Below are positions 2,402-35,666 of a stretch of DNA of 64,000 bases, piece after piece. The DNA is from a virus. Lineage: Duplodnaviria; Caudoviricetes. Numbering within the stretch: the first letter of the stretch is position 1; every line of letters starts with the position of its first letter. The DNA is taken from IMG/VR virus record IMGVR_UViG_3300025724_000001, positions 1-64,000 of that record. One strand, 5' to 3'. Position numbers and translations under genes: made by a program. The notes under the pieces were generated by a model. The model was not told where the DNA came from and searched no databases. It saw only the letters and a list, made by a program, of their open reading frames with translations.

Positions 2402-5400
2402 TTATGTCGGTTCGGCATGATATGCATAATCATTACCATCGGTTTCAATAATTTCATCTTCATTAAGCTTTTTACTATTAACTTCAGATTTTAATACTTT
2501 TTTATTATAATTAACCCAATATTCGTCAACCAATTCTAATGTTCCTTCTGGATACATAAAGAATGGATCCATATTTATTTTATTCCAGAATATCACCTCA
2601 GTATCAGATAATGTCATGACATCGTCTAACTTGTCCTGTCCGCTTTCTTTCAAAGGTGTACCACTGTCAAGTTCACATTGAAGATCTGTAAAATATTGTC
2701 TGTCTTCAGGTTTTTCAATTAATATACTATCTCGTATTTCTGGTTTAAATACAACAAGTAATGGTTGTATACGTTTATTAAATGTTGATACATAACGAGC
2801 AACGTTATATTCACCAGTTTTATCTGGAAAAAGTGCAATGTCAGATTCAGATATTCTATAACAATTAATTTCAATTTCAGTTATTGTTGATGGTTTTTTC
2901 TTATGTTTCTGATAATATTCTTCTAATTCTTTTCTTGTGTATTTTTTTTCATATCTTGTTTTCCTTTGAACATCACCAGAAGATTTTGTTCGTCCGTTAT
3001 TAACATAGTAAATTGTTTCACCAAGGGTTGCCGGATATTCATCTTTCATTATAAGTTCCATATGCGCTTGTCGAGCCATTAATGAACCAGATTTCGTTTT
3101 TTTCTTTATATATTTTTTATAATCATCAACACTTTGTTTTACACGAGCTTTGTTTGCTATTTTTGAAAGTGGTATTTGTTGATTATAGATTTTTTCAAAA
3201 TATTCATAATAATAGTTAATAAAACCTTTACCATCACCATTTAATAAAAGTCTAAATCCTTCATCTATAAATTCTTCAATATATTGTGGTAATTTTTTTG
3301 ATTTAATTGTATTGCCGGTAAGTTTTATTTTTTCTTTTCCTTTTTTTATTAATTTAATTGCATAATTTTTTCTTGCAATGTTTATACATGCAGGTGATAA
3401 ATAATCAATATCAAGCCCCATAACACCTCTCATAAATGTATCATTAAACTCGGCCATATCAGCATTGATGCCGACATACTCTTTTCCTTTTTCAACGGAG
3501 CTATTTAACCCTTTTCCGATATAAACATGTGAATTAACATCATCAGGTGTCGAAAAGTTTACACCATCAGTATTTTTTAATAAGATACCACCAATTCCAC
3601 CAACAAAAGTTCCGTCTTCAGTTGATATATCATAAACATATCTTTCTTCATTATGTAAAATTTCATTAAACCATATTTCGCTTGGCCTTCTTTTGGTTTT
3701 TTGACTTTTAATTGTGTTGTTTTTATCTTTTCCAATAATTAAAGACTGTGTGTTCGAATTATTCTTTCGTATAGTGATATTATATTCAATCTGTAGTCGT
3801 TTTAAAATATATGATAATGCTGCAATACATACTTTTGATTTTTGGGTTATATTAAAATTGTCATACCAAACGTCATTATTGTGATACCCAGATATAAATG
3901 CTTTTAATATTTTTTCAGTACCATTTAAAATTTCTTTAGGTATCATTTTTTGTTTATATGATGTGTAGCAATTTTTATTAAACCATTTACACAATTCAAT
4001 ATATTCTTCTTTTGTGAAATCTTTATATTTTTTTAAAATTTCTTTGTCATTATCATTAAGAGCAAAATTACCTTCCCTATAAACAATTGTATCATCACCA
4101 ATAAAATACCCAATTAATTTGGCGTTCTTATCCGTAATATAATTTTCAGACTTTAAAACGGGTATTTCAATAATGTCTATCTTATCACCCCTTAAAAGTT
4201 CCGTGGGTTTAATCTGTTCTCCATTTTGAAATACAGAATGATCTGATGTACAACATACTAATCTATCTTTTGTAACTAATTTATGTATTGGTTTATCTGT
4301 CATATGACGATAAACATACTTAATTTCTTTCCATCCATTTTTAGTTAAAATTTCATAATCCTTTTTTGAAAAATCTCTTAAATTATCTGGACTCATATAT
4401 TTCGAATTATATGAGTTTTCATTGAATAAATCACAAATAGGTAAAATAACTAAATTATTATTACAATCTTTCAGATAGACAGGGGTGTCAAATTCAACAC
4501 TATCCATAACTAACGGTACATATTTTTTCTTCATAAACCACATAATCATCATACGAAGAAACTGACGACCAGTACATGTGGTAAATTCACCATTATCCAT
4601 ATCACCCCATAAGAAAACTAGTGGTGCTGAAACAGAACCAAAATATGCATTAATAAAAATTTTTAAAGGTAATTGTTTTCTATCATAAAATTCTGATAAT
4701 TCTGTATTTGTTTTTTCATATTCAATATTGAGTTGTCTATAATGAAAACGTATTCTAAGAAAATATTCTAACAATGCTTTTTGTACTCCAGTAACATCAC
4801 AATCAGGAAAATTATCAAATACAATATGAATTGAAGGATAAAGAGATTTATAGTCAAATTTTACAATATTTTTTGAATAACCGACTTTTAATAATCGAGA
4901 TAACCCCCCAGTAATACTTCGTTTTTCACCTTTTTCTGGTAATGCTAAATTATGATCATAAGACCAAGCAAGCATAATGATTTTCCATAATGTTGCCGTA
5001 CCCATTGTAGCTACTCTTTCATATGTCGTAGGAACTAATTTTGATAGTAAAAATGTTGACTGGCTAAATGAGTCGTCGGCTACCATTGTTTCATATAAGT
5101 CATCATCAAGATATTGTTCAACAAGTTTTCTTCCCGACCATATTTCATATTTACCAGGAAATCTTTCTTGTAATCTTTCAGTACCCGGATCTCCAATTTT
5201 TCTCCAACCGCCAGATTTTGGATTTACGTAATAACTATCCTTACCTAAATAAATTCGTGAAATATGGGCACCATCAATATAAATTCGATTTGGTTTTTCT
5301 TTTTCAAGATATTTGGTTATATACTTTAATCCCCATGATTTTATTTCGGAATTAATTGCCTGTGCTCTACGAACAGAATGTGATGTATCTATAACATTAA

Positions 5401-6244
5401 AACCCCACAATTTGTATTGATCATAAGGTTCAATTTCACTCGCTAATTTTAATATACCTTTTTTAATTCTTAAACCATTATTTGATATAATTTTTGTGAT
5501 TTCATCAACATTCATTTTGTTTATTTCCATTCGTCGTTTAATGAATGGAAAGTCGAAAGATGCTGAATTGTGACCACCAATAATAGTTGGATTTATTTCT
5601 CTAATAACATTAAAAAAGGTTTCTATACATCTTTTTTCACCATCTTCACCATGAGCATTAATCAATAAACGAAATCCACGATTGTCTTTAACACCAATTA
5701 GATTTATTTTATGTATTTCAGGATCAAGACCTTCTGTTTCAATATCAAACACCATCTTATGTACCTCAGAATACTCTTCAATACCTTTAAATAAGCGCTT
5801 TTTTTTCTGTACAAGATATTGTTCTTCCACAGAAAGAATTTGAAATAAATGTTTGTACTTTTCACCCCAAGGATCAATACCACCTTGTTTAAAAAAATTA
5901 ATGAGAGCAGAATATCCTTTATATGACTTAACAAGATAACGAAGACCAGCTTCAAGTCTAACATTTCCATGTGTATCTAATGGACTAATCATAATACTAT
6001 ATTCAACCATTTTTCTTTTTTGTAAAGATTTACTGTTTTTATAAAAATCTAGTCCAGTTAGATCGCCAACCCATAAAAACGGTACAAAAGTATCTGTTTT
6101 AACAATTTTTCCCTTTACAGGGTCTTGTATTATTTTATAAATTCTGTTTGATCTGTAATCGTATTCAATCGCTACGATATATTTTTCGGAATCTTCTCCA
6201 TGAAGAAAGTTTTCGATAACTTCCTGTGTAATTGCTTTACTCAT
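2402..6244 (-). CDS. polB: Family B DNA polymerase with one intein
   Basis: Exo motifs FDIET, HNSASFDFP and YLDDDL. Pol motif A KFDYKSLYPS and motif B QLPLKIFINAYFG. Motif C (VMD|TDG) is split by an intein. Confidence 0.95.
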   Translation of the reverse strand: MSKAITQEVIENFLHGEDSEKYIVAIEYDYRSNRIYKIIQDPVKGKIVKTDTFVPFLWVGDLTGLDFYKNSKSLQKRKMVEYSIMISPLDTHGNVRLEAGLRYLVKSYKGYSALINFFKQGGIDPWGEKYKHLFQILSVEEQYLVQKKKRLFKGIEEYSEVHKMVFDIETEGLDPEIHKINLIGVKDNRGFRLLINAHGEDGEKRCIETFFNVIREINPTIIGGHNSASFDFPFIKRRMEINKMNVDEITKIISNNGLRIKKGILKLASEIEPYDQYKLWGFNVIDTSHSVRRAQAINSEIKSWGLKYITKYLEKEKPNRIYIDGAHISRIYLGKDSYYVNPKSGGWRKIGDPGTERLQERFPGKYEIWSGRKLVEQYLDDDLYETMVADDSFSQSTFLLSKLVPTTYERVATMGTATLWKIIMLAWSYDHNLALPEKGEKRSITGGLSRLLKVGYSKNIVKFDYKSLYPSIHIVFDNFPDCDVTGVQKALLEYFLRIRFHYRQLNIEYEKTNTELSEFYDRKQLPLKIFINAYFGSVSAPLVFLWGDMDNGEFTTCTGRQFLRMMIMWFMKKKYVPLVMDSVEFDTPVYLKDCNNNLVILPICDLFNENSYNSKYMSPDNLRDFSKKDYEILTKNGWKEIKYVYRHMTDKPIHKLVTKDRLVCCTSDHSVFQNGEQIKPTELLRGDKIDIIEIPVLKSENYITDKNAKLIGYFIGDDTIVYREGNFALNDNDKEILKKYKDFTKEEYIELCKWFNKNCYTSYKQKMIPKEILNGTEKILKAFISGYHNNDVWYDNFNITQKSKVCIAALSYILKRLQIEYNITIRKNNSNTQSLIIGKDKNNTIKSQKTKRRPSEIWFNEILHNEERYVYDISTEDGTFVGGIGGILLKNTDGVNFSTPDDVNSHVYIGKGLNSSVEKGKEYVGINADMAEFNDTFMRGVMGLDIDYLSPACINIARKNYAIKLIKKGKEKIKLTGNTIKSKKLPQYIEEFIDEGFRLLLNGDGKGFINYYYEYFEKIYNQQIPLSKIANKARVKQSVDDYKKYIKKKTKSGSLMARQAHMELIMKDEYPATLGETIYYVNNGRTKSSGDVQRKTRYEKKYTRKELEEYYQKHKKKPSTITEIEINCYRISESDIALFPDKTGEYNVARYVSTFNKRIQPLLVVFKPEIRDSILIEKPEDRQYFTDLQCELDSGTPLKESGQDKLDDVMTLSDTEVIFWNKINMDPFFMYPEGTLELVDEYWVNYNKKVLKSEVNSKKLNEDEIIETDGNDYAYHAEPT
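3572..4501 (-). mobile_element. Intein (310 aa) in PolB motif C, with a degenerate LAGLIDADG domain
   Basis: Starts S-VEFDTPV; block B CTSDHSVF; block F YVYDISTEDGTF; ends GILLKN followed by +1 Thr. Removing it restores MDTDG. Confidence 0.9.
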
Positions 6245-6310
6245 TGTATATTATGTTAAGTTTGACATATTATCTTACGAATTTTACGTTCGTAGTTTGT
6301 CTTGTCTATA

Positions 6311-6342
6311 AAAATATACAGAAAAAAAATAAAAAAAACAAA
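6311..6342 (-). promoter_or_regulatory. Early-type promoter of polB (TTTG-N20-TATATTTT)
   Basis: Minus strand: TTTG at 6342-6339, a 20-bp spacer, then TATATTTT at 6318-6311. Same architecture as the promoters at 7510, 33664 and 41612. Confidence 0.55.
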
Positions 6343-6359
6343 AAAAGTCTATCTAATTT

Positions 6360-7484
6360 TTAAATAACTTGAATTGGATATGGCATTGCTCTATATTTAA
6401 GACTTGTATTCAAATTTTCAGCTTCTTTTGCCTTTCTTTCAAGCATTTTGTCCGGACGCAATCTTTCAAGTCTTAACATTAATTCTTCCACCGCTTTGGT
6501 TTTATCATCTCTTGCTTCAGTCAATAATGATTGATAATCTAATCTAACTTGACTATCAGGAACTTGTAATTCACCAGAAAACTTACCCCATATTCTACCA
6601 AGTGTTTCTTTACAATAAGCAATAAAATACTTCCTCACCCAGTTTTGTGATGGACCATTTAACTTATGCCACACAAGACGATCTGTCATAATATCTGATG
6701 GTAATTTAACAATATCATCCATATTATTTCTGTCCAAACATGTATCCATTTCAGTCGTATCATAATACCAATACCAAACATGGTAATTGTTACTTCGTAA
6801 CGAACCAAAATCAAACCGTCCACCTGGCGTATTATATAAATGAACTAGTTTTTCGCCAGTTGGAAGAGCTGTTATTCTATATGTTAATTCACCACCAATT
6901 AATCTGTTTTTAAGGTTTCTATCTTGCATTCTTAATAAAAGGTCATAGGCTGGTAACATAAAATATGAACCAGACGTACCAACTTGAGCAAAACCACCAA
7001 CGCCACCGAAACCAACACCACCAAGACCACCAAAACCACCCAAGAATGGGTCGACAATTGAATCAGTTAATTCGGCTCTGGTAAACCATAATAATTCATT
7101 AATTTCTCTTCCTGCTGGTATTACATATGTTTGAGTGTTAGCAGATAGTGCGAAATAATCTTTATGTAAAACATATGGACCACCGGCTTGTAAACCAACA
7201 ATTTTCGAATATGCATATGTGTATTGTGTCATATAATCTAAACTTCTTGTTGTGAATGCCCTGGCTAGTGATTGTGAATCAATATCAAGTCCAGCTAATG
7301 ATGCCCATTGTGATTCAATAAGCCAATCATTCACATATTGTTCATATTCTGCAATTGATAACTCTAGAAGTGAATCCATTTGCTCTTCAGTTAGTTCTAC
7401 ACCCCTAACTGGTACACCTAAAAGATGAAGAACTTGTGTAAAAAGTTTTTCCCGTTCGTCTGCATTAATTACTGTGGTTGCCAT
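6360..7484 (-). CDS. Neck/head-tail adaptor protein, T4 gp13-like
   Basis: N-terminal LLGVPVRGVELTEEQMD and C-terminal WVRKYFIAYCKETLGRIWGKF...LDYQSLLTEA match the gp13 pattern. TATTTATA lies upstream on the minus strand (7509-7502). Confidence 0.8.
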   Translation of the reverse strand: MATTVINADEREKLFTQVLHLLGVPVRGVELTEEQMDSLLELSIAEYEQYVNDWLIESQWASLAGLDIDSQSLARAFTTRSLDYMTQYTYAYSKIVGLQAGGPYVLHKDYFALSANTQTYVIPAGREINELLWFTRAELTDSIVDPFLGGFGGLGGVGFGGVGGFAQVGTSGSYFMLPAYDLLLRMQDRNLKNRLIGGELTYRITALPTGEKLVHLYNTPGGRFDFGSLRSNNYHVWYWYYDTTEMDTCLDRNNMDDIVKLPSDIMTDRLVWHKLNGPSQNWVRKYFIAYCKETLGRIWGKFSGELQVPDSQVRLDYQSLLTEARDDKTKAVEELMLRLERLRPDKMLERKAKEAENLNTSLKYRAMPYPIQVI

Positions 7485-7509
7485 GCTATTAATTTCTTTA
7501 TTATAAATA

Positions 7510-7541
7510 TTTGATATTTTTATTTAATAATCGTATATTTG
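7510..7541 (+). promoter_or_regulatory. Bacteroidota-type housekeeping promoter (TTTG-N20-TATATTTG)
   Basis: TTTG at 7510-7513 and TATATTTG at 7534-7541 match the -33/-7 TTTG / TAnnTTTG consensus. The ATG is at 7547. Confidence 0.65.
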
Positions 7542-7546
7542 TTTAT

Positions 7547-7759
7547 ATGACAAACTCAGAGATTTTAAAAGAGATTCTAATTGAATGTAACAAAAGACGT
7601 ATCGATTTTACTATATCTCAAGAAGAAGATGAAATTAATGTAAAATATGTGGAAGGTGACCCTAATAGTGTTTACTTAAATATCCCTGACTTTGATAATG
7701 AAAATCTCCCAAATATTTTAATGAATTGTTTAGAAAAAATTAAAACAATTCCTTCATGA
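7547..7759 (+). CDS. Small acidic hypothetical protein (70 aa)
   Basis: ATG 7547 directly follows the promoter. The ORF-track start at 7511 lies inside that promoter. Confidence 0.6.
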   Translation: MTNSEILKEILIECNKRRIDFTISQEEDEINVKYVEGDPNSVYLNIPDFDNENLPNILMNCLEKIKTIPS

Positions 7760-10595
7760 GTTCCTTTCCGAAACTTTCAGAATATTCACCGTCACCCATT
7801 ACTTGATCAATCACATCTTTTTTTCTCATTAAAATGTTATAGATAATTTGTTCAATTGTGTTTTCAAAAATTGGATAATATATTAAAACATTGTTTTGCT
7901 GACCCTGACGACAAGCTCTATCCTCAGCCTGACTGTGATGTGATGGTACAAAAGATAAATCATTCATAATAACAACTTCTGCTGCTGTTAAATTTATACC
8001 AATACCAGCCGCAATGATATTACCAATTAAAATTTTAATCTTAGGATCATTTTGAAATTTATCTATAGCAACATCACGTTTTGATGGTGACATCCTACCA
8101 TCGTATATTACTGAATTTCTAGGATATTTTTCATGCAACATATCTAAAGGTAATGTAAAATTAGTAAAAACAATAACCTTTTTATTTAATTCAAGACATT
8201 TATCGATCAATTCACACGTATATGGAATTTTTTCGTTTGCAATTATTTGCCTAACTTTGACGAGACGATTAATCGTAATTGCAATGCTTTCTTTTTTTCT
8301 CTCATCTTCAGCTATCCTCATAAATTCCTCTAATTCTTCATTATAGAAAGTACTTTGTAATTCTAGAAAAATAGGAGAAATTGTTTTTTCTGGTAATCCG
8401 GGTATTTCAGTTTTTAATCTTCTTAATACAATATTTTTGGTTCTTTCTCGTAATTCATCCAAATTGCTATGACCACTAGTATTCCAGATTGTTCTACCAT
8501 GAGCCTTAAAACGAAATCCTTTACAATATCTCTTCACGTAATGTTGCCAATTCAATGCAACTGGAGAATTAACAATTTTTAAAAGATTATAATAATTTAT
8601 TGGCCTGTTTGTCATTGGTGTCCCAGTTAACAACCATACTTTTGGTATTTTTTTAAGAATATCATTCATCAGTTTTGTCCGTTGGCTTGATGGATTACTA
8701 AGATAATGTGCTTCGTCTACAATTACAAGTTCAAAATTTTCTTTTTGTATTAAATTAATATCATTTTCTTCATCATTTTTCTTGGTTGTATGATAATTTT
8801 TAAGAATATCATAATTTATAATATAAAAATCAAATGTAGAACCCCATTTTCTACCTTCGACTATTAACACCGGACGATCAGTATAATTTTTTATCTCTCT
8901 TTTCCAATTAATTTTAACACTTGCCGGACAAACTATCAAAATTTTCTTTGCTTCCGACTCTAATGCAGCAATTATTGCTGATGTTGTGTTATGAGTCACG
9001 ATGCCATGATTAACAACATATAATTTATCGGGAGAATCCACCGCAATACACACCGATTCGCCCTGTTTTTCAAATTTTATGTCTTTTATGTATCTTCCGA
9101 CCTGGTATTTTTCGGGTTCATGGTATCTTTCAGCTTTTCGTTTTAATCTAAAAGGATTCATTCCTTTAGCCAATTTCATATTTACCCTATATGATATGTT
9201 ACATTCTTTACGAGTCCCATTTTTAACATAAAACGACCTACGAGTTCGTTTCCTAGCGACACCACCCAAAGAATGTACTATCTCAATTAAATCATCACAT
9301 AATCTTTCAGAGATTGTTGAGTATTCCGTTGATAAAAACGATCCAGTTTTACTAAAAGCACAGTATCCATCAGTATCCATTAACCCCTGTAGTAGCGATA
9401 TCCGATTCTCAATCGATGAATATTTGTAAATGTCAGGAATAAATTTATTATTTGAACGACAATTTTGTATGTTTAACTTTTCCAGTATATCTCCAACATT
9501 AATATATCCTGTTTTTATGTGTGGCCTTGTACGACATTCAATCGGATGTAAGTTATATGACTCAAATAACTCGTTATAATCGTCCTTATGAACTGAAAAT
9601 CTTATTTTTTTTTCATCTAAATACCCGTCACCGAGAAATAAACCAAAAAGATATGGATCAATAGGAAGCGGATTAGTGTTATCAAATTCTATAGGATCAA
9701 CCATAGGAATTTGCCACTTTGAATCTCCATTTTTAACTTTATAATATGTTGAAAATTTATATTTTTTATCTTTATTATATCCTGATCCGTTTATCTCCAA
9801 AACAAGATCTTTATCCATCATTTGTTCAACACTTAAAATAATATCTTTTTCTTCCCTATTATTTTTTGTGTTTTTACCAAAATTACTCGAATATACTTTA
9901 AATAAATGACTTTTATCTGCTAATATTGAATAACCATCATTAAATGTTATTCTATATAAATCCATAACACCCTGTGGGAATACGCCTATTATCTTACATT
10001 TTTTACCATTCGAACCAATTACTTCATCACCAGCTTTTAGTTTTCCTATTTCAACTTTTCCTTTAGGCGTTATTACTAATTCATTAATACTTAGACCTTT
10101 ACCTAACCCCATATCATCAGCCAAAATGAACCTATTATTAGCCAAAAGTGACTCAATTGCTTTAGGTTGCCATGGTTTTGGTGGTCTATGACTATATTTT
10201 GAATAATCGATTTCTCTTTTTAATTTTTTTTCAGGTTGTAAAACAGCCCCTTTAGGTAACCATATTGCTTTTAATGATTCATTATCAAAATATTTTCCCC
10301 AAATATGATACGCCTTTTCAGTTTCACATAATAATTTCTCACACCATATTTTTTCAACAGGATTTGGTAATTGTTTATCTTCTTGTAATTTTTCACCAAA
10401 AGAAGAAACAATCATTATATGTTTTCTAGCTACTTTTGGTACTATTTCATGAAATTTTAACACATATTCAGCTTGTGATCGTGTTAATTTGAAATTTTTG
10501 TTTCTTAAAAATTTTAATTTCCATTCAAGTAGCTGATTATTGGCTCCTTCGTAGACTAAAAGTATATTTTTTGCATCAATTTCAGGTATATTCAT
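7740..10595 (-). CDS. SNF2-family (HARP/SMARCAL1-like) helicase with an intein
   Basis: Motifs LADDMGLGK|T, IVCPASVKINW, DEAH, LTGTPMTN, GIGINLT and QAEDRACRQGQ. Start re-called at ATG 10595 (MNIPEID) to avoid overlap with the divergent 10675 gene. Confidence 0.9.
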   Translation of the reverse strand: MNIPEIDAKNILLVYEGANNQLLEWKLKFLRNKNFKLTRSQAEYVLKFHEIVPKVARKHIMIVSSFGEKLQEDKQLPNPVEKIWCEKLLCETEKAYHIWGKYFDNESLKAIWLPKGAVLQPEKKLKREIDYSKYSHRPPKPWQPKAIESLLANNRFILADDMGLGKGLSINELVITPKGKVEIGKLKAGDEVIGSNGKKCKIIGVFPQGVMDLYRITFNDGYSILADKSHLFKVYSSNFGKNTKNNREEKDIILSVEQMMDKDLVLEINGSGYNKDKKYKFSTYYKVKNGDSKWQIPMVDPIEFDNTNPLPIDPYLFGLFLGDGYLDEKKIRFSVHKDDYNELFESYNLHPIECRTRPHIKTGYINVGDILEKLNIQNCRSNNKFIPDIYKYSSIENRISLLQGLMDTDGYCAFSKTGSFLSTEYSTISERLCDDLIEIVHSLGGVARKRTRRSFYVKNGTRKECNISYRVNMKLAKGMNPFRLKRKAERYHEPEKYQVGRYIKDIKFEKQGESVCIAVDSPDKLYVVNHGIVTHNTTSAIIAALESEAKKILIVCPASVKINWKREIKNYTDRPVLIVEGRKWGSTFDFYIINYDILKNYHTTKKNDEENDINLIQKENFELVIVDEAHYLSNPSSQRTKLMNDILKKIPKVWLLTGTPMTNRPINYYNLLKIVNSPVALNWQHYVKRYCKGFRFKAHGRTIWNTSGHSNLDELRERTKNIVLRRLKTEIPGLPEKTISPIFLELQSTFYNEELEEFMRIAEDERKKESIAITINRLVKVRQIIANEKIPYTCELIDKCLELNKKVIVFTNFTLPLDMLHEKYPRNSVIYDGRMSPSKRDVAIDKFQNDPKIKILIGNIIAAGIGINLTAAEVVIMNDLSFVPSHHSQAEDRACRQGQQNNVLIYYPIFENTIEQIIYNILMRKKDVIDQVMGDGEYSESFGKELMKELF
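8988..10097 (-). mobile_element. Intein (370 aa) in the helicase Walker A motif, class-3 type, with LAGLIDADG endonuclease
   Basis: Inserted at GLGK|T. Starts G-LSINELV and ends HGIVTHN. LAGLIDADG motifs are PYLFGLFLGDG and SLLQGLMDTDG. Block F reads SVCIAV. Confidence 0.9.
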
Positions 10596-10674
10596 AAAAT
10601 TTAATAAATAATAATATACATAAATAGAACTATTTTGTAAAGTATTTATTGGCGTATGATATTGAATATAAAAC

Positions 10675-11187
10675 ATGGAAAATAAATTACCAATAACAAG
10701 ATTAAACAAATTTTTTTCTGAAGACGACTATAATTTACATATCGAAATGGGGATGGAATATCTTCATGGAGATTTGAACATGAAAGTTGTTCTTTATCAG
10801 GTTGACCGAACAATAACAGGCAACGACGATGTTTATGGTGAAGCCGGAAAAGATGATATAAAATTTAAACCACCAATTGAATTTAATGCTTTGGTTCATG
10901 TTGTTGCTGCAGAAAATAAGTCTTACAAATCAGGGTTATTAAGATATCTTGAACCTGGTAATATGGTAATATCTGTTTATACTAAAACATTAGAAGATCT
11001 TCAAATTGATGTAAGATTTGGTGATTATATTGGTTATGCCGATAGTGAAAAAAGAATAAGATTTTATAATGTTGTGAATGATGGAAAGGTTAATGCTGAT
11101 AATAAACACCACCACTTCGGTTATAAACCTTCTTATAGAACAATAATTTGTGCACCAGTACAAGAAAACGAATTTAGAGGAATTTAA
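10675..11187 (+). CDS. Head-closure/neck protein, gp14-like (putative)
   Basis: 'DDVYGEA...KFKPPIEF' and 'GDYI' patterns, size, position before the tail terminator, and TATTTAT upstream (10643). Confidence 0.5.
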   Translation: MENKLPITRLNKFFSEDDYNLHIEMGMEYLHGDLNMKVVLYQVDRTITGNDDVYGEAGKDDIKFKPPIEFNALVHVVAAENKSYKSGLLRYLEPGNMVISVYTKTLEDLQIDVRFGDYIGYADSEKRIRFYNVVNDGKVNADNKHHHFGYKPSYRTIICAPVQENEFRGI

Positions 11188-11188
11188 T

Positions 11189-11794
11189 ATGAAAAAAATC
11201 ATTATAAATGAACAACAATTAAACTTTTTATTGGAACAACAAGGAATTGATGATTTTTTTGAAATGATGTCTGAAACATTCCCTGATTCAGTTTATATTA
11301 TGCAATTTATAAAAGATTTTATAACCAAATCTGGTTGTAAATCTATTAAAGTTGATTCGTTTAAATATCCTGCGCTAGGCTTATCAACAATAAACGGAAT
11401 TGTCCTCAATATAAAGGTATTTTCATTAGAATTATCATATTTTCTTTATGTTTTATTTCATGAAATTGCACATCAATATCAATATAAAAAATATGGTATC
11501 GATAAAATGTATGGTTGTTATACTAGGGATTTATCATTGAGAGAGGGGGCGTTATTTATGAAATATTGTGAAAATATTGCTGATGAATTTGCAATGAGAA
11601 AATTAAGAGAATTAAAAAAATATTTTGGTGATAAACTAAAAATCACAAATCAAGAATCTAAAGTATACCAAGATACTCCTATTGAATATTTTGAAAAACT
11701 TATTGAAAAATTCATTAAAATAATAGAACAAAAAGGATATAATGATAAAAATGAAATTACTGAAATATTATATAATTTTATAAAAAACGGATAA
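11189..11794 (+). CDS. Putative zinc metallopeptidase (HExxH)
   Basis: VLFHEIAHQYQY with a downstream CENIADEFA (third-ligand E..A..FA pattern). Start re-called at ATG 11189 (MKKIIINEQQL). Confidence 0.65.
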   Translation: MKKIIINEQQLNFLLEQQGIDDFFEMMSETFPDSVYIMQFIKDFITKSGCKSIKVDSFKYPALGLSTINGIVLNIKVFSLELSYFLYVLFHEIAHQYQYKKYGIDKMYGCYTRDLSLREGALFMKYCENIADEFAMRKLRELKKYFGDKLKITNQESKVYQDTPIEYFEKLIEKFIKIIEQKGYNDKNEITEILYNFIKNG

Positions 11795-11795
11795 A

Positions 11796-13046
11796 ATGAC
11801 ATTGCCAAGAAAAACAAATATTAATGTATATCGACAAATTGGAACTGAGCCAACAGAAAAAGAACTTATTCCGAGAAGGCAAGAACTACTCGATAGAATA
11901 ACAAAATCTGACACATATTTACCAGATCCGATTTTACATGACGATTTGGATAAAGGAATGTTAGAATATATTAACGATAATTTAAAAGTAGTTTCAGATG
12001 GCGTTCAAATTCCAATTATTCCAAAAATTTTAACAGTACAAAGATGGGGTGAAATATCAAACACTTGGACATTCACAGATGAAGATGGTAATATGAAAGT
12101 CCCTTTTGTTGGTGTTATCCGTAAACCAGACGTTCAACCCGGTACAAATCCCGTCATACAACGAACTATTCCTGATAGAAGACAAGTTTTTTATGCTACA
12201 GTTAAAACATGGGATGGACAACAAAACGGTGCTGATGTTTATAAAATACCACAGCCTGTCGCTGTTGATATAGGATACGAAGTCACCATTGTTTGTCAAA
12301 AATTTAGAGATTTAAACAGATTTAATAGAATTGTTCTTCAAAAATTTGCATCAAGACAATCATACACAAAAGTCAAAGGACATTATATTCCAATTATATT
12401 AGAAAGAATTAGTGATAATTCACCAATTGAAGCACTAGAAGGTCGTAGGTTTTATTTGCAAACATATGAATTTACAATGCTTGGATTTTTAATTGATCCC
12501 GATGAATTCGAAGTGAAACCAGCAATTAATAGAGTATTGTTATTACATGAATTTATGGGTGGTAAATCAATACAAAAAGATATACACCAAAGAGGTATTG
12601 AAGTAAAAACCGCAACATTTATTAGTGATGGTGTTACTACATCATATAGTGTTGGTGAACTTATTGGTTATTTATTCTTTGTTTCAATAAATGGATTGGT
12701 ACAACAAAAAGATATTGATTATTATTGGATAGGACAAACATCACGAATTTCTTTTGTTACACCACCAGTCGAGGGTAGCCGAATAATGGTAATGTATTAT
12801 GCTGGAAGAAGTGGTGTATTTTATGATAATTATGGTGAAATTTTACGATTAACACATCAAAATTTTGTTTATACCGATTCACTCTCTTTCACAGTTACCA
12901 ATGATATAAAAAGTGTTGTTTATATTGAAATTAACGGTCTTGTTGATGAAATTGAAATTGGATATGAGGTTTCAGATGTAAATACAGTAACACTATTAGA
13001 TACCCCAATAGTAGGATCGCGAATTAGTATTTGTTATTTGTATTAA
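11796..13046 (+). CDS. Tail terminator/sheath stabiliser (gp15-like) with a duplicated C-terminal domain
   Basis: PQPVAVDIGYEVTIV motif and position before the sheath gene. Two C-terminal 'INGLV...P..GSRI..Y' repeats. Confidence 0.6.
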   Translation: MTLPRKTNINVYRQIGTEPTEKELIPRRQELLDRITKSDTYLPDPILHDDLDKGMLEYINDNLKVVSDGVQIPIIPKILTVQRWGEISNTWTFTDEDGNMKVPFVGVIRKPDVQPGTNPVIQRTIPDRRQVFYATVKTWDGQQNGADVYKIPQPVAVDIGYEVTIVCQKFRDLNRFNRIVLQKFASRQSYTKVKGHYIPIILERISDNSPIEALEGRRFYLQTYEFTMLGFLIDPDEFEVKPAINRVLLLHEFMGGKSIQKDIHQRGIEVKTATFISDGVTTSYSVGELIGYLFFVSINGLVQQKDIDYYWIGQTSRISFVTPPVEGSRIMVMYYAGRSGVFYDNYGEILRLTHQNFVYTDSLSFTVTNDIKSVVYIEINGLVDEIEIGYEVSDVNTVTLLDTPIVGSRISICYLY

Positions 13047-13050
13047 AAAA

Positions 13051-13218
13051 TTATTCGTCATACAAATCCTTTTTTTTACTTCTGTTTGGTGTCTTATCAA
13101 GCGTCTCAATCCACTTTTCAATTACTCGATACATTTTTAAACCAGTTTTTTCACAATAAGCTTTCAATATTTCATGATGTTTCTTACTGATTTTAATATT
13201 TTTACTTGGTGTTCCCAT
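13051..13218 (-). CDS. Small ribbon-helix-helix-like DNA-binding protein (55 aa; absent from the ORF track)
   Basis: Translated by hand: MGTPSKNIKISKKHHEILKAYCEKTGLKMYRVIEKWIETLDKTPNRSKKKDLYDE. It has an alternating beta-strand (KNIKIS) followed by helix-G-helix, and TATTTAT upstream on the minus strand (13232-13226). Confidence 0.7.
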   Translation of the reverse strand: MGTPSKNIKISKKHHEILKAYCEKTGLKMYRVIEKWIETLDKTPNRSKKKDLYDE

Positions 13219-13347
13219 ATTATAGATAAATAATAGTAAAAAAAGATAAATTACTATCTTTTAATTTTTTTTCATTTGACCCTTTGATAAAAACAAAGAT
13301 ATTTATCTGTAATAACAGTAATAAATAATTTAACTAAATAAAAATCA

Positions 13348-16164
13348 ATGGCTACATCAAAAAGAGTTTTCGTTTCTCCAGGTGTTTATACCTCTGAGAA
13401 AGATTTAACATTCGTTGCTCAAAGCGTTGGTGTGACAACACTGGGTTTAGTTGGTGAAACACTAAAAGGTCCAGCTTTTGAGCCAGTTTTAATAAAAACA
13501 TATGACGAATTCAGAACATTTTTTGGATCAACTTCTCCTTTAAAAGACGGTAATGGTAATCCTGCCTATGAACTCCCATATTTTGCAAAATCATATCTAC
13601 GGGAATCAAATCAATTATTTGTAACAAGAATACTTGGTTTAACTGGATACTTACCAAATAAAACATTTGCTCTAAAAACTATTGGTGGTGTAATTGTAAA
13701 CACAGAATCAACACCAACACAAACCAACGGTACACTTGATTTACTTAATGTTGAATCATTCGAGTTTTATAATGTTTTAAGCGGAAAAACAGCAAATGAC
13801 GGTAGTTCAATTATTGACTGGATTAGTGAACAAACTTTTGTAAATGAATCATGGTTCACAATTGGACTAGTTCCTACAGCATCAATTGAAACATTAACCG
13901 GTGAACAAGTAAATGGTCCTATTGGTAATGTAACTAATTTCGCATGGGCAAATAATTTTCTCAATCCAACTGGTGATGGTGTTTTTTCTTACTTGTTTGT
14001 TTATGATGATGGTATGGATAGATTTATTGTAAGCCAATTTGAATATCCATCAACAACAAACGAATATGATAATATAGCTGTCGCTGAATTTAGACCAAGA
14101 GGCCGTTATGTTACATCAACATTAACTTTAACAGTTACTAATAATACAGGATTTACAATGTCTTCAAATGACATTGAAACGAATCCGTTAGGTGAATTTA
14201 TTTTAACTATTAATCCTGATGACGCAAATATGCCAGCAAAAACATTTACTTGTTCAATGGATAGAACATCTAGTAAATATGTGACAAAAGTATTGGGTAC
14301 TGGTGTATTTGATAGAAATTATATGGATTATCCTATTTATGTGTTTGAATCTTATCCAATATTAGTTGAATCACTATATAAACGTGGTTTAATTAGGGGA
14401 TTAAGCCTTGATGTGGTTTATCATCCGGTTGGTAATGATTTTATGACAGAATGGAAAACAGCAGAATCACCATTTATTGTTTCAGAAGTGCGTGGTGGTG
14501 TTGTTAATGATTTGTTTAAATTTATTGCAATATCTGATGGTAATGCATCAAACGTACAAGTAAAAGTTTCAATATTAAATATTGACCTTGATACTGCAGA
14601 ATTTGACGTTCTTATTCGCGATTTTAATGATACCGATGATAATATGGTTGTTCTTGAAAGATTTTCAAGATGTTCAATGAACCCAGATCTTCCTGGCTTT
14701 ATCGGTTTAAAAATTGGAACGTATGATACTGAATATGAACTTAAATCCAAATATGTGATGTTAGAATTAGCGGAAGATTTCCCAATAGATGCTGTTCCAT
14801 CAGGATTTAGAGGTTATGCCACTGATCAACTATCTGGCGATGCAATTTTGGGTGGTGTGCTTTATAAAACACAATATTACATTGCAGGTGATATTGTCAC
14901 ATATGATGCAACTGGTGTACCAGAAGATCAATCAGGTGATAGAATCAAAAGGGTTATGTTAGGATTATCAACACAATTTGGATATGATAACAGTATGTTT
15001 AATTTTAAAGGTGTAAACCCAACAACAACCACAACAGGATTCCACCTTTCATCACAAGCATCAACTTTAACTGGTAATACAAATACTGGTTTTGAATTTG
15101 ATTGTACACCATATGACCTTGAAGGAATAAATAAAGGCGAACTCGAATCGGTATCAAAACGCAAATTTACTCTAGCATTGGCAGGTGGATTTGATGGCTG
15201 GGATATATACAGAGATGTTAGAACATTTGGTGATGCATATAAATTTGGAAAAACAACATATGATGATAATAACACTAATAATGGTGGTGTGTTTAATTCT
15301 ACTGTCGGTAATTCTGACTATTATGCATATAAGGCAGGTATTGACACGTTTAACAACCCGGAAGCAATTGATATAAATCTCTTTGCAACACCTGGTATTA
15401 ACTTTTATGAACACGCATCATTAACTGAAGAAGCTATTGATATGGTTGAAAACGAGAGAGCTGACTCACTTTATATTATATCAACACCAAACGTAACAAC
15501 AGCTGATGAAATTATTGATATGATGGATACAATTGATTTGGATTCTAATTATTCCGCCACATACTGGCCATGGATACAAGTTAGAGACAATGAAAATTCA
15601 ACACAATTATATATTCCACCAACTGGTGAAGTTCTCAGAAATATGGCATTAACAGATAACGTTTCGTATCCTTGGTTTGCAACTGCAGGATATTCAAGAG
15701 GTATTGTTAACGCAATCAAAGCTCTTAAAAAATTAACACTTGATGAAAGAGATGAACTTTATAAAATGAGAATTAATCCAATAGCAACTTTTTCTGATAC
15801 TGGCCCTATTATTTGGGGTAATAAAACACTTCAAATACGAGAATCTGCTCTTGATAGAATTAATGTTAGAAGATTATTATTAAGAGCAAGAAAACTCATA
15901 GCAGCGGTCGCTGTCCGATTACTATTTGAACAAAATGACGAACAAGTTAGAAACGAATTTACTAGACTTGTTAACCCAATTCTTGAGGCTATTAAAAAAG
16001 AAAGAGGACTTTATGATTTCAGATTAGTAGTATCTAATGATCCTGAAGATATTGATGCAAATACTCTTAGAGGTAAAATTTACATTAAACCAACAAGATC
16101 ATTAGAATATATTGATATTGAATTTATCATAACACCAACAGGAGCTTCATTTGAGAATATCTAA
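13348..16164 (+). CDS. Contractile tail sheath protein (gp18-like)
   Basis: N-terminal FVSPGVYTSEKDLT; GETLKGPAFEP; C-terminal PWFATAGYSRG, INPI, WGNKTL, RINVRRL and IKPTRSLEYIDIEF. Confidence 0.95.
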   Translation: MATSKRVFVSPGVYTSEKDLTFVAQSVGVTTLGLVGETLKGPAFEPVLIKTYDEFRTFFGSTSPLKDGNGNPAYELPYFAKSYLRESNQLFVTRILGLTGYLPNKTFALKTIGGVIVNTESTPTQTNGTLDLLNVESFEFYNVLSGKTANDGSSIIDWISEQTFVNESWFTIGLVPTASIETLTGEQVNGPIGNVTNFAWANNFLNPTGDGVFSYLFVYDDGMDRFIVSQFEYPSTTNEYDNIAVAEFRPRGRYVTSTLTLTVTNNTGFTMSSNDIETNPLGEFILTINPDDANMPAKTFTCSMDRTSSKYVTKVLGTGVFDRNYMDYPIYVFESYPILVESLYKRGLIRGLSLDVVYHPVGNDFMTEWKTAESPFIVSEVRGGVVNDLFKFIAISDGNASNVQVKVSILNIDLDTAEFDVLIRDFNDTDDNMVVLERFSRCSMNPDLPGFIGLKIGTYDTEYELKSKYVMLELAEDFPIDAVPSGFRGYATDQLSGDAILGGVLYKTQYYIAGDIVTYDATGVPEDQSGDRIKRVMLGLSTQFGYDNSMFNFKGVNPTTTTTGFHLSSQASTLTGNTNTGFEFDCTPYDLEGINKGELESVSKRKFTLALAGGFDGWDIYRDVRTFGDAYKFGKTTYDDNNTNNGGVFNSTVGNSDYYAYKAGIDTFNNPEAIDINLFATPGINFYEHASLTEEAIDMVENERADSLYIISTPNVTTADEIIDMMDTIDLDSNYSATYWPWIQVRDNENSTQLYIPPTGEVLRNMALTDNVSYPWFATAGYSRGIVNAIKALKKLTLDERDELYKMRINPIATFSDTGPIIWGNKTLQIRESALDRINVRRLLLRARKLIAAVAVRLLFEQNDEQVRNEFTRLVNPILEAIKKERGLYDFRLVVSNDPEDIDANTLRGKIYIKPTRSLEYIDIEFIITPTGASFENI

Positions 16165-16187
16165 TATTCATTTTTTTAATTAATGAG

Positions 16188-16219
16188 AAAAGAGGTGATT
16201 TAAACACCTCTTTTTTTTT
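16188..16219 (+). terminator. Intrinsic terminator after the sheath gene (possibly bidirectional)
   Basis: AAAAGAGGTG-atttaaa-CACCTCTTTT followed by a T run. Confidence 0.8.
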
Positions 16220-16231
16220 ATTTAAAAATCC

Positions 16232-16365
16232 CCAGAATACTAGTTCCAGAATACTAGTTCCAGAATACTAGTTCCAGAATACTAGTTCCAGAATACTAGT
16301 TCCAGAATACTAGTTCCAGAATACTAGTTCCAGAATACTAGTTCCAGAATACTAGTTCCAGAATA
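16232..16365. repeat. Perfect tandem repeat, 14-bp unit CCAGAATACTAGTT, 9 full copies plus 8 bp
   Basis: Units start at 16232, 16246 ... 16344, with a partial copy at 16358. Each unit contains the palindrome ACTAGT. There are no spacers. Confidence 0.97.
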
Positions 16366-16407
16366 TTAATACTAGAAAAAATAATTAAAATATATAAAAT
16401 CTAGTAT

Positions 16408-16501
16408 CTGGGTTCCAGTACCTGGGTTCCAGTACCTGGGTTCCAGTACCTAGGTTCCGATATATAGATTCTAGTATACTAGTATTATTACTGGAACCTA
16501 G
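16408..16501. repeat. Second 14-bp tandem repeat (CTGGGTTCCAGTAC x3 plus partial), a 12-bp palindrome and an inverted copy
   Basis: Units at 16408, 16422 and 16436, with a partial CTAGGTTCC at 16450. Palindrome CTAGTATACTAG at 16471-16482. Inverted TACTGGAACCTAG at 16489-16501. Shares the GTTCCAG core with the first array. Confidence 0.92.
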
Positions 16502-16514
16502 TTGCTGGGCCGAA

Positions 16515-16543
16515 AAAATACAATTTTTTTCTGAGAAAGTCAA
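16515..16543 (-). promoter_or_regulatory. Leftward promoter (TTGACT-N17-TATTTT) firing into the repeat arrays
   Basis: Minus strand: TTGACT at 16543-16538 and TATTTT at 16520-16515, with a 17-bp spacer. Same layout as the 17181 promoter. Confidence 0.5.
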
Positions 16544-16673
16544 GTTTTTTTGAAAAATTTTAAAAATTATTGAATATATACTATTTATAGTAATAATATT
16601 ATAAACAAAAAATTTTTTTTAGTTTGAATATATTTATAGGAAAACAATAAACAAATTAATATAAAAATGCACA

Positions 16674-17162
16674 ATGGCTGACTTATTAATGAAGATGCCC
16701 GTACCTTACGAGCCTAAAAGAAAAAATAGATTTATTTTAAGATTTCCTTCAAGTTTAGGAATTAATGAATGGTATGTGTTTTCTGCTAATAGACCTAGTA
16801 TGAAAATTAACTCTACTGAAATCCAATTTTTAAATACATCAACTTATGTTGCAGGTAGATTTGTATGGGATGAATTACGTGTTCAATTTAGAGATCCGAT
16901 TGGTCCTTCAGCATCACAGGCGTTAATGGAATGGGTACGTTTACATGCAGAATCTGTTACGGGGAGAATGGGGTATTCTTGTGGCTATAAAAAAGACATA
17001 GAGTTAGATATGTTAGATCCAACAGGAGTTGTTGTTGAAAAATGGATACTTCAAGGAACATTTTTAACTAATATAAATTTTGGTGATCTTGATTATTCAA
17101 GAGATGATATAGCAACTATTGAATGTAGTTTACGAATGGATCGTTGTATACAAGTATATTAA
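16674..17162 (+). CDS. Tail tube protein (gp19-like)
   Basis: YEPKRKNRF, YVAGRFVWDEL, EW, YKKDIEL.MLDPTG.VVEKW.LQG.F and FGDLDYS motifs; follows the sheath gene. Confidence 0.92.
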   Translation: MADLLMKMPVPYEPKRKNRFILRFPSSLGINEWYVFSANRPSMKINSTEIQFLNTSTYVAGRFVWDELRVQFRDPIGPSASQALMEWVRLHAESVTGRMGYSCGYKKDIELDMLDPTGVVVEKWILQGTFLTNINFGDLDYSRDDIATIECSLRMDRCIQVY

Positions 17163-17180
17163 AATAATTCTCGTATATCC

Positions 17181-17236
17181 TTGACATCCTAAAAAAAAAT
17201 CCATATTTTTACGAAAATGTAAATATATGGATTTTT
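17181..17236 (+). promoter_or_regulatory. Promoter (TTGACA-N17-TATTTT) overlapping an 18-bp hairpin that covers the endonuclease start codon
   Basis: TTGACA at 17181-86 and TATTTT at 17204-09. Inverted repeat 17195-17212 / 17219-17236 (17 of 18 pairs) includes ATG 17227. Confidence 0.7.
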
Positions 17237-18810
17237 CATTTTTCACAACAGATAATAAATCTGGTTATAAAACCAACGAAAAATGGTTAAAACATCACCA
17301 GCCAGAATTATATAATAAAATTATAAATTATTCTAAAGAATTTAAATATGATTTAAGTTTTAAAGAAAAAATATGGTTTTATTTTAATAATTTAACCGAA
17401 CGTCCAAAATGTAAAACATGTGGAAAAGAAATTAAATTTAGGGAAAGATTTGATAAACCATATGGTGATTTTTGTTCATTAAATTGTATTAATAATAATA
17501 AAAATGAAATGATTAAAAGGCAAAAGGCAACATTTCAACGAAAATATAATGTTGATTTTTATCCTGAACATGAAGATTTCATTAAAAAACAACGAAAAAC
17601 AAAATTAGAAAAATATGGGAATGAAAATTATAATAATCCAAAAAAAATGGCCAAAACAAAATTAATTAAATATGGTTCTCAAAAATATTGTAATCATAAA
17701 AAATATATTGAAACTTGTAAAGAAAAATATGGTGTGGAAAATTTTTCAAAATCAAATGAATATAAAGATATTATTGATAAAAAATTTCGAAACATATATC
17801 CAGATATTAATATTGTTAAAATAACAAAAAATAAGGTTAAAATTAAATGTAATTTGTGTAATAGAATAATTGAAATTGAAAAGCATTTATTACACGGAAG
17901 AGTAAAATATAATCAAATTATATGTCCTGAATGTAATCCAATAGGTCAAAGTCAAAAAAGTAGTCATGAAAATGATTTGTCTAATTTCCTTAATGGTTTG
18001 TCAATAAAATACATATCATCTGATAGAAGCTTATTAAATAGACAGGAATTAGATATTTTGATACCAGATTATAAATTGGCAATAGAATTTGATGGTTTAT
18101 ATTGGCATAATGAATTATTTGTACCATCAGATTATCATTTAAAAAAAACTATTAGATGTCAAGAAAAAAATGTTGATTTAATTCATGTTTTTGAAGATGA
18201 ATGGCTATTTAAAAAAGAAATTGTTGAATCAATAATCAAAAATAGACTGGGTAAACTAGATGATAATATTTTTGCTGAAAAATGTGAAATTAAAGAAATC
18301 GATTCAAATACATGTAAGGATTTTCTTATTAATAATCATATTCAAGGAAATGTTAATTCCAAAATTAAAATTGGTTTATATTATAAAAATGATTTGGTTT
18401 CTGTTATGACTTTTTCAAAAGGCAGAATTGTTGTTGGTGGTAAAAATAATGAATGGAAATTGACGAGATTTTGTAACAAAATTAACGTCAATGTTATTGG
18501 TGGTGCTAGTAAATTATTTAATTATTTTCTTAAAACATATTCTCCCACAAAAATTATTTCTTATTCTGATATTAGATTATTTAATGGTAGTTTATATGAA
18601 AAATTGGGTTTCAAAAGAAAATCTCAATCAAAACCAAATTATTGGTATGTAATAAATAATCAAAGATATCATAGATTTAATTTTAGAAAATCAATACTAG
18701 TTAAAGAAGGTTATGATAAAAATAAAACAGAAAGGGATATTATGTTTAATAGGAAAATATATAGAATTTATGATTGTGGACACATTAAATGGGAATTTAA
18801 TGTACTTTAA
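17227..18810 (+). CDS. Free-standing homing endonuclease-like protein (Zn fingers, KYG repeats, Vsr/DUF559-like nuclease, GNAT/Mom-like C-terminal domain)
   Basis: CKTCG...FCSLNC, KYG repeats, CNLC/CPEC, ELDILIPDYKLAIEFDGLYWH...IHVFEDEW. C-terminal NHIQG...LTRFC...GGASKL...ISYSD...YEKLGF. More AT-rich than its neighbours. Confidence 0.75.
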   Translation: MDFSFFTTDNKSGYKTNEKWLKHHQPELYNKIINYSKEFKYDLSFKEKIWFYFNNLTERPKCKTCGKEIKFRERFDKPYGDFCSLNCINNNKNEMIKRQKATFQRKYNVDFYPEHEDFIKKQRKTKLEKYGNENYNNPKKMAKTKLIKYGSQKYCNHKKYIETCKEKYGVENFSKSNEYKDIIDKKFRNIYPDINIVKITKNKVKIKCNLCNRIIEIEKHLLHGRVKYNQIICPECNPIGQSQKSSHENDLSNFLNGLSIKYISSDRSLLNRQELDILIPDYKLAIEFDGLYWHNELFVPSDYHLKKTIRCQEKNVDLIHVFEDEWLFKKEIVESIIKNRLGKLDDNIFAEKCEIKEIDSNTCKDFLINNHIQGNVNSKIKIGLYYKNDLVSVMTFSKGRIVVGGKNNEWKLTRFCNKINVNVIGGASKLFNYFLKTYSPTKIISYSDIRLFNGSLYEKLGFKRKSQSKPNYWYVINNQRYHRFNFRKSILVKEGYDKNKTERDIMFNRKIYRIYDCGHIKWEFNVL

Positions 18811-34569: not shown

Positions 34570-34582
34570 TTAACATTTGTAG

Positions 34583-34621
34583 AATCTTCCCGTTTCAATA
34601 TTGGGGCGGGAAGATTTTTTT
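34583..34621 (+). terminator. Hairpin/terminator between ssb and recA
   Basis: AATCTTCCCGTTTCAA-ta-TTGGGGCGGGAAGATT (with G:U pairs) followed by a T run. Confidence 0.75.
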
Positions 34622-34633
34622 AACTAAAAAAAC

Positions 34634-35650: not shown

Positions 35651-35666
35651 TTTAAATTAATGGTGA

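Follow-up and report, generated by a model that had tools for sequence, protein, structure and literature searches.

The gap between the tail sheath and tail tube genes of an uncultured virus (IMG/VR record IMGVR_UViG_3300025724_000001) contains two tandem arrays with a period of 14 bp. These arrays arose by tandem amplification of short CYAG/CTRG boxes, recently and to an extent that varies between strains. The boxes belong to a clade-wide, single-copy, non-coding module that lies between the sheath-gene terminator and the tube-gene late promoter. The sequence analysed, referred to below as the window, comprises the first 64 kb (64,000 nucleotides) of the 104,720-bp record, and the gap extends from 16165 to 16673 within it. 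Several explanations for the module were considered. An origin-type, protein-coated set of boxes resembling oriE and oriF of phage T4 is ranked first, and is proposed tentatively from sequence features, as the reading given most weight while itself falling short of probable. An operator-type transcription switch is ranked second, and a centromere-like site, a non-coding RNA and a neutral repeat follow, each at a similarly low level of probability.

Both arrays described in an earlier reading of the window made from its letters (the sequence-only reading) are recovered by Tandem Repeats Finder, with 9.6 and 4 copies, and both exceed shuffled expectation (coordinates of this and other features are collected in Table 1). 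The unit of array 1 consists of one CCAG box and one CTAG box, with core spacings of 8 and 6. It has 9 exact matches against 0.59 expected from shuffles, a number reached by none of 100 shuffled sequences, and does not occur again in the 104.7-kb record. In array 2, CTGG and CCAG boxes alternate 7 bp apart, and GGTTCC is present in each unit; the core of this unit is matched 4 times against 0.51 expected. In total, 33 boxes of the forms CTAG, CCAG or CTGG are contained within 277 bp (16232-16508). The AT-rich spacer, the 12-bp palindrome and the inverted copy of the array 2 core that had been noted alongside the arrays are each present, the last of these at 16488-16498, inside box cluster B. 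The proposal that the repeats place stops in all reading frames holds for array 1 and is limited to it, because array 2 is open in one minus-strand frame, where a 52-aa open reading frame (ORF) spans 16385-16543.

Relatives were collected by way of the sheath and tube proteins, each of which identified at least ~590 related contig stretches in the viral collection, and all counts of relatives given here are among the matches listed for these two protein searches. Both genes flank the gap in 138 loci, where it is usually 250-440 nt in length, and the 88 distinct gaps that were read share one common architecture. From the sheath side, this consists of a bidirectional terminator, a parS-like palindrome in approximately half of the examples, box cluster A, an AT-rich spacer, box cluster B, a conserved block, and the late promoter of the tube gene. 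Cluster A opens with a CYAG-N4-CTRG palindrome, and the late-promoter motif lies ~45 nt beyond the conserved block. Boxes occur at a density of 21.4 per kb in 87 related gaps and 3.2 per kb in their flanks, and CTAG alone is enriched ~17-fold (12.1 versus 0.7 per kb). The sequence-only reading had proposed a comparison of this gap in related phages, and comparable repeats are found there, including clusters of at least four boxes each in 76 of the 87 gaps. The median number of boxes per gap is 7 in the relatives, compared with 33 in the window. Box cores are most often 6 bp or 7-9 bp apart, and the spacers consist of A and T only. All palindrome-type matches fall in the sheath-tube gap in the eight long records searched. 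Matches to the conserved block likewise fall in this gap in the three long records searched, with one weaker second site in one record. The module is conserved even though the sheath protein diverges to ~60% identity.

The number of copies in the arrays differs between near-identical strains. A strain assembled independently from another sample (L009) carries the same units as the window in fewer copies, 5.4 and 2.6 as opposed to 9.6 and 4, and its sheath region has 99.75% DNA identity to the window. One copy of its unit contains a CCAG-to-CTAG change. Scans for the exact units identified this strain only among viral contigs and nothing among metagenome contigs, and no match to the region was obtained at the DNA level among 50,697 phage records. 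The closest non-identical relative by tube protein among the matches listed (L089, 90%) has no arrays. Array 1 begins where cluster A begins in the relatives, and its unit corresponds to the first palindrome together with its 2-bp spacer; by this correspondence of position and unit, array 1 is an amplification of the first palindrome of cluster A. Array 2 has a CTGG-plus-GGNCC flavour, which is the mark of cluster B in the window's own subclade. Within that subclade, another contig (L095) shows a CTGG-plus-GGTCC unit amplified independently at the place of array 2, and its arrays comprise 12 copies of 15 bp followed by 7.8 copies of 14 bp. Other lineages have box amplifications of their own, with different units (L075 and L070, which also differ from each other, L039, L111 and L028). 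Among the inspected contigs that end within the gap, L028 alone clearly terminates in an array. The copy number of the arrays may be of use as a practical strain marker, and is also a warning that assemblies may break or collapse at this point. Relative to L009, a recombination junction is observed at the arrays (16160-16240), with identity of 99.75% over the sheath and of 90-95% from the arrays rightward.

The gap of the relatives also receives foreign genes. Homing endonuclease genes of the family to which 17227-18810 of the window belongs are inserted in either orientation (L152, L097, L037, L039, L033), while a TnpB-type gene is found in one gap (L010) and a resolvase fragment in another (L095). 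Minus-strand cargo, consisting of a YkuD-type L,D-transpeptidase gene (L164, L165) or a GDSL-type hydrolase gene (L080), lies between the terminator and the module. These insertions fall outside the module, which remains with the tube-gene side when foreign genes enter the gap.

Perfect copies, and a difference in copy number between near-identical strains, are typical of slippage. This would be expected if the gap were an ordinary junction of terminator and late promoter, in which slippage within the AT-rich spacer (or, in part, assembly) had produced arrays devoid of function. The status of the gap as a hot spot for insertion (of homing endonuclease, TnpB, resolvase fragment, YkuD and GDSL sequences) suggests tolerance to change, and the gap of a cultured distant relative, Mel-JY01, measures just 94 bp. 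However, the content and order of the boxes, the promoter block and the single-copy status are all conserved despite sheath identities of ~60%, CTAG is strongly enriched over the flanks, and the insertions land beyond the module. In addition, several lineages have amplified boxes rather than other spacer sequence. A purely neutral origin of the arrays therefore appears quite improbable.

The module is bounded by a hairpin next to the sheath gene and by the conserved block on the side of the tube gene. The hairpin, which the sequence-only reading had described as closing the far side of the locus, is present, and in the family consensus an A run before the stem and a T run after it form a terminator on both strands. 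It probably terminates transcription in both directions. The minus-strand TTGACT-N17-TATTTT promoter that had been reported to point into the arrays is also present, but as a bare match it is no better than chance, with 8 consensus promoter sites in the window versus 8.6 expected. The match carries weight only because it is conserved: of 99 distinct relatives, 83 retain TTGAnn-N16-18-TAnWTT on the minus strand. A reading of the block as a plus-strand TTGACA promoter was rejected, as its -10 partner is found in just 8 of the 99, mostly elsewhere. When 34 relatives are aligned, T1 T2 G3 A4 and T24 A25 T27-T31 do not vary, and it is on such positions that the function of a promoter depends. The -7 box of Bacteroidota-type promoters is TAnnTTTG. 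The invariant T run after TA would fit such a box about as well as a sigma-70 -10 box.

Transcription from this leftward block is predicted to start near 16508, pointing at the boxes. No conserved ORF is found downstream of the block in the gaps of the relatives, and the distance from block to terminator is ~200 nt in the relatives and ~300 nt in the window. The minus-strand cargo genes were discounted as support for a leftward promoter, since the YkuD gene of L164 has a late-promoter motif of its own. The sole other strict TTGAC(A/T)-N16-18-TA-type site in the 104-kb record (17181-17209, plus strand) lies directly upstream of the homing endonuclease gene, and has an A-rich spacer similar to that of the conserved block.

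On the tube side, no part of the gap is better conserved in 99 relatives than the motif ATATTTATA with A or G after it. In the window the motif occurs at 7510 (minus strand) and at 13296-13310, 16630 and 18828 (plus strand), which places it 25-45 nt upstream of four virion genes, namely 6360-7484 and the sheath, tube and baseplate hub genes. Since it is found upstream not only of the tube gene but also of three further virion genes, among them those for the sheath and the baseplate hub, it is read as probably the late promoter of the clade. Its sequence is that of the T4 late motif in reverse complement.

The leftward block faces the terminator with no ORF between them. Such an arrangement would suit a non-coding RNA gene, with a leftward RNA of ~200-300 nt that ends at the bidirectional terminator and whose repeats bind a protein or pair with targets. 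In the window, the predicted minus-strand RNA would hold 13 CUGGAA motifs, and its folding energy lies below that of shuffled sequences (z -6.4). However, the plus strand folds nearly as well (z -6.0), and mean values in 45 relatives (-2.0 for the minus and -2.3 for the plus strand) show no strand difference. Because both strands fold about equally in the window and in the relatives, the folding signal is ascribed to DNA palindromes. RNAalifold yields no consensus pair in 34 relatives, and mixed palindromes show no excess of wobble pairs on the minus strand, where U.G and C.A combinations are equally common (15 versus 16). None of the families in Rfam 15 reaches its gathering score; the best is sraA, with 31.9 bits versus 56, over the terminator hairpin. 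The strand with the GGA-bearing motifs is not the same in the window as in the relatives, and the conserved hairpin loops with GGA motifs of protein-sponge RNAs of the CsrB/RsmZ type are not found in the module. A non-coding RNA gene is thus very doubtful, and the decoy or sponge RNA that had been offered as one of two possibilities for the locus is not borne out. The symmetry of the boxes indicates sites in duplex DNA, so that a role in protein binding is the simplest reading, and the boxes likely bind a protein.

A nearby gene for a small DNA-binding protein was considered as the source of this protein. The gene at 13051-13218 (minus strand), at a distance of 3 kb from the boxes, is divergent from the sheath gene, is conserved in ~119 related loci, and encodes a 55-aa ribbon-helix-helix protein that matches the Pfam family RepB-RCR_reg at the cut-off and Omega_Repress weakly. 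In its control region, boxes of the AGATA type recur and an inverted repeat directly precedes the late promoter of the sheath gene, while CYAG boxes are absent from this region in 72 of 76 relatives. The product was rejected as the box binder, as its own region uses AGATA-type boxes and its DNA-reading strand is unchanged where the boxes of relatives differ (e.g. L071).

A regulator might nevertheless coat both box clusters, loop out the AT-rich spacer, and gate the leftward promoter, the tube late promoter, or both. The arrays would then be extra copies of an operator, and the compositional step described below would have another cause. Cluster B is situated at the predicted leftward start, and the late promoter is ~120 bp away. 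Several observations are consistent with an operator of this kind. The CYAG-N4-CTRG geometry is that of the CTAG-N4-CTAG arrangement in the 18-bp trp operator of Escherichia coli (PMC13762905), and the clusters resemble the arrays of 4-bp boxes, OF and parH, that are coated by the ribbon-helix-helix repressor ParG (PMC3130281). Cluster B adjoins the promoter block in all relatives, and the module stays beside the tube gene when other genes insert. The palindrome pairs show no strand asymmetry, as expected of sites in duplex DNA. On the other hand, no candidate regulator was found: the ribbon-helix-helix gene has AGATA boxes, with the scarcity of CYAG noted above, and a TrpR-family gene (PF01371) is absent from the four phage records searched, which are 34-63% complete. 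A dedicated regulator is also hard to justify for the promoter of a ~200-nt non-coding RNA, the sheath late promoter works without such a module, and the compositional change-point would be left unexplained. An operator switch is accordingly regarded as possible but rather unlikely.

The parS-like palindromes suggest a further alternative, in which the module is a centromere-like or DNA-organising site that recruits host ParB or a phage analogue, and a larger number of boxes provides a larger loading platform for positioning or compacting the genome. A 16-bp palindrome with at most 3 mismatches to chromosomal parS is located inside the module in 52 of 99 relatives (e.g. L113, L143, L107), and in some of these its form is identical to natural parS variants of Pseudomonas aeruginosa (PMC4368675). 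The two adjoining box arrays recall parH plus OF of plasmid TP228 (PMC3130281), and there is one copy of the module per genome. However, the window and its subclade have no parS-like palindrome, the best match in the window containing 7 mismatches in 16 positions. No gene with a ParB N-terminal domain (ParB_N) is present in the four partial phage records, and there is no sign that this lytic-type T4-like phage persists as a plasmid. A centromere-like function is for these reasons considered improbable.

Evidence of a different type comes from strand composition. The sequence-only reading had placed a switch in gene orientation at the locus, but the switch lies at ~10.7 kb rather than in the sheath-tube gap, since four plus-strand genes, the sheath gene among them, fill 10675-16164. 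Over whole positions, GC skew tracks gene orientation and its cumulative minimum is at ~10 kb, at this switch. A reading of this minimum as evidence that refutes an origin at the gap was rejected, because analyses of third codon positions and four-fold sites separate out the coding effect. To the left of the gap, third-position skew ranges from -0.17 to +0.10 in plus-strand genes and from -0.09 to -0.32 in minus-strand genes (referred to the plus strand). To the right, it is +0.19 to +0.73 in 47 of 49 genes over 88 kb. The best single change-point in third-position G/C over the 104.7 kb falls at 16682-16691 (support 15975-16898; log-likelihood gain 104), and G makes up a fraction of 0.42 of third-position G plus C on the left side of the gap, as opposed to 0.68 on the right side. 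The sheath gene (G 61 / C 86) is the final gene of the low-G regime, and the tube gene (G 22 / C 7) opens the G-rich one. At four-fold sites, genes left of the gap have a plus-strand skew of -0.20 whichever way they are oriented, and the values to its right are +0.33 to +0.40 (Fisher 2e-7). G exceeds C at third positions in nearly every gene from 16674 to 104 kb (skew 0.2-0.7), a bias over 88 kb that is far weaker in six more distant relatives sharing this gene order.

A change at the gap is also seen in relatives from the same subclade. In an 83-kb relative (G004) it is located at 34465, with a support interval (34285-36389) that includes its own gap and a gain of 75. Skew at third codon positions, which had been named as a check on an origin at this locus, thus places the change at the gap in both genomes. 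Two unamplified members of the subclade (L011, L012) show the same step within 13-kb loci, with G fractions of ~0.45 on the left and 0.61-0.65 on the right; the notion that more boxes accompany a stronger step was rejected on this account. The boundary is kept in two genomes whose sheath proteins are 70% identical, and it would therefore seem to reflect an ongoing strand-specific process rather than a recent import.

If the module is an origin of the T4 type, the following sequence of events may be envisaged. The boxes, often paired as CYAG-N4-CTRG palindromes with AT-rich spacers, would be the DNA sites of a sequence-specific dimeric protein that coats the array. In the window's subclade the module would act as an origin element, in which the leftward promoter, like the T4 early (oriE) or middle-mode (oriF, oriG) promoters, yields a short non-coding transcript. 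This transcript would enter the repeat-flanked AT-rich stretch and prime replication or open the DNA there. Replication starting at the module would explain the third-position G/C change at the gap, and the extra array copies would be iterons amplified by slippage. This reading is ranked first because it alone accounts for a promoter without a gene, an AT-rich spacer flanked by repeats, presence in a single copy, and a compositional boundary.

A number of observations weigh against an origin. At four-fold sites alone the best change-point is at 21.9 kb, with the gap at the edge of the support (16.7-22.75 kb). Six long relatives that bear the module (G001-3, G006-8) have no step at the gap, where a forced change-point gains 0.1-10.6; they show little asymmetry overall, and their best change-points are elsewhere. 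The step in the window is one-sided, with a left arm near neutral and a right arm strongly rich in G, and the minus-strand genes on the left of G004 do not fit a symmetric bidirectional origin. Third-position skew in the sheath gene is negative in all relatives, which sharpens the apparent step. The change-point also coincides with the recombination junction between the window and L009 (99.75% identity on the left, 90-95% on the right), and a mosaic origin is possible for part of the compositional step. The module is not at a divergence of transcription, and the origin reading comes, as far as the sequences indicate, without a known initiator gene or box-binding protein. Finally, T4-type phages have several origins and also replicate by recombination-dependent means, and what the oriE repeats do in T4 is itself unproven (PMC3016281). 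The change-point evidence for an origin is new, and holds for one subclade only. Of the bidirectional origin suggested by the sequence-only reading, a change-point at the gap in this genome and in G004 is retained, while equal arms are not observed and the step is absent from the six other relatives.

In its broadest form, the proposal would have the uncultured T4-like giant phages of a large clade replicate principally from the module, as an origin consisting of a leftward primer promoter and protein-coated boxes. One branch would have added a host-type parS, borrowing the segregation or condensation machinery of the host. A further branch, including the phage described here, would have lost parS and amplified its boxes, with a strong strand bias of the replication type from the module onward. 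This combined scenario is speculative, and unlikely as a whole.

The positions of the module, its repeats and the two bordering genes are given in Table 1.

Table 1. Features of the sheath-tube gap and the genes on either side (positions in the window)
Feature	Position	Strand	Description
Tail sheath gene	13348-16164	+	PHROG 23 tail sheath, E 6e-63; Pfam Phage_sheath_1, Phage_sheath_1C
Sheath terminator hairpin	16185-16217		13-pair stem and T run on the plus strand
Array 1	16232-16365		Period 14, 9.6 copies, 100% matches (Tandem Repeats Finder)
AT-rich spacer between the two box clusters	16366-16400		Variable-length AT-rich counterpart at this place in relatives
Array 2	16403-16458		Period 14, 4.0 copies, 95% matches (Tandem Repeats Finder); array as annotated, 16401-16458
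Palindrome of the CYAG-N4-CTRG type	16469-16484		Basic site of the family; perfect 12-bp core at 16471-16482
Box cluster B (CTGG, CTAG, CTGG)	16488-16509		Adjoins the promoter block; homologous to the conserved cluster B of relatives
Conserved leftward promoter-like block	16515-16543	-	TTGACT 16543-16538, 17-nt spacer, TATTTT 16520-16515
First, imperfect copy of the late-promoter region	16570-16590	+	Duplicated 10-mer, then TATTTATA-type motif
Tube late promoter (probable)	16624-16640	+	ATATTTATA then A or G; ~35-45 nt before the start codon
Tail tube gene	16674-17162	+	PHROG 4542 tail tube, E 1e-23

The record has 30% G+C, and its estimated completeness of ~34% corresponds to a giant phage with a genome of roughly 300 kb. 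The minus strand of 2402-10709 encodes a DNA polymerase and an SNF2 helicase, each of which bears an intein. The intein segments, in the family B DNA polymerase (2402-6244, minus strand) and in the helicase (7740-10709, minus strand), are of the LAGLIDADG type. A free-standing homing endonuclease gene (17227-18810, plus strand), with DUF7487, Vsr-like and Mom-like regions, is located 3' of the tube gene. All other CTAG clusters of the record are period-12 and period-36 coding repeats within giant virion proteins (1-170, 54427-54478, 57881-58002 and 59969-60079 in the window, and 67.8-71 kb and 97-104 kb in the record).

The module is a concrete and clonable candidate for how uncultured giant phages, the origins of which are unknown, start or organise replication, and it is of added interest in that the origins of T4 itself are poorly defined. 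Its practical merits are that it is single-copy and clade-wide, has a simple box grammar, and includes a conserved opposing promoter. It also coincides with the sharpest compositional boundary in one subclade, and contains a host-type parS in half of the relatives. If its role is instead that of an operator or centromere-like site, the module would nonetheless represent a new cis-element whose binding protein is still to be sought.

Among known systems, the parH/OF region of TP228 has 4-bp boxes arrayed with AT-rich spacers between them and coated by dimers of the ribbon-helix-helix protein ParG (PMC3130281). The module shares with it two neighbouring arrays of degenerate 4-bp boxes with short AT-rich spacers, the presence of direct and inverted boxes beside a promoter, and a flexible number of boxes. 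However, the box of the module is CYAG rather than ACTC, and its spacers alternate between 2 bp and 3-5 bp instead of being a regular 4 bp. No ParF/ParG-type genes are found beside the module, and the nearby ribbon-helix-helix gene appears to use other boxes. More generally, the module has the long array and AT-rich spacers of ribbon-helix-helix box arrays (ParG, omega heptads), but not the cognate autoregulated neighbouring gene and ATPase.

The trp operator of E. coli is an 18-bp near-palindrome bound by TrpR, with two CTAG boxes 8 bp apart (PMC13762905). The CTAG-N4-CTAG geometry is common to both, and half-sites of the ACTAGT type are found in the 16471-16482 palindrome and in each unit of array 1. 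In contrast, the module has dozens of boxes rather than two or three and either C or T at the second box position. The phage records searched (four, 34-63% complete) lack a gene of the TrpR family. Chromosomal parS is a 16-bp palindrome bound by ParB, of which the P. aeruginosa sites have been listed (PMC4368675). It is resembled by the palindrome in the module of about half of the relatives, and one of its arms is similar to the 6-bp arm GGTTCC that is repeated in array 2. The window itself, as noted, is without parS. The T4-type junction of genes 18 and 19 likewise has a terminator after the sheath gene and a tube gene with its own late promoter; here ~300 additional conserved non-coding bases are present, with boxes and an opposing promoter-like block.

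The closest comparison is with the T4 origins. Those of the oriF and oriG type require a promoter and an AT-rich downstream unwinding element, while oriE has an early promoter and evenly spaced 12-nt repeats (PMC3016281). The module differs in that it lies between two co-oriented late genes, with no divergence of transcription, and its 14-bp repeat units are made up of 4-bp boxes, which are often palindromic and bear no sequence relation to the T4 repeats. It also has no gene context of the repE or MotA type. On the other hand, the phage carries a T4-type set of virion genes, and its promoter-like block would fire into a short non-coding stretch with evenly spaced direct repeats and an AT-rich segment. 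The repeats occur at a syntenic place in the relatives, and composition shifts at this site in the present genome and in one relative.

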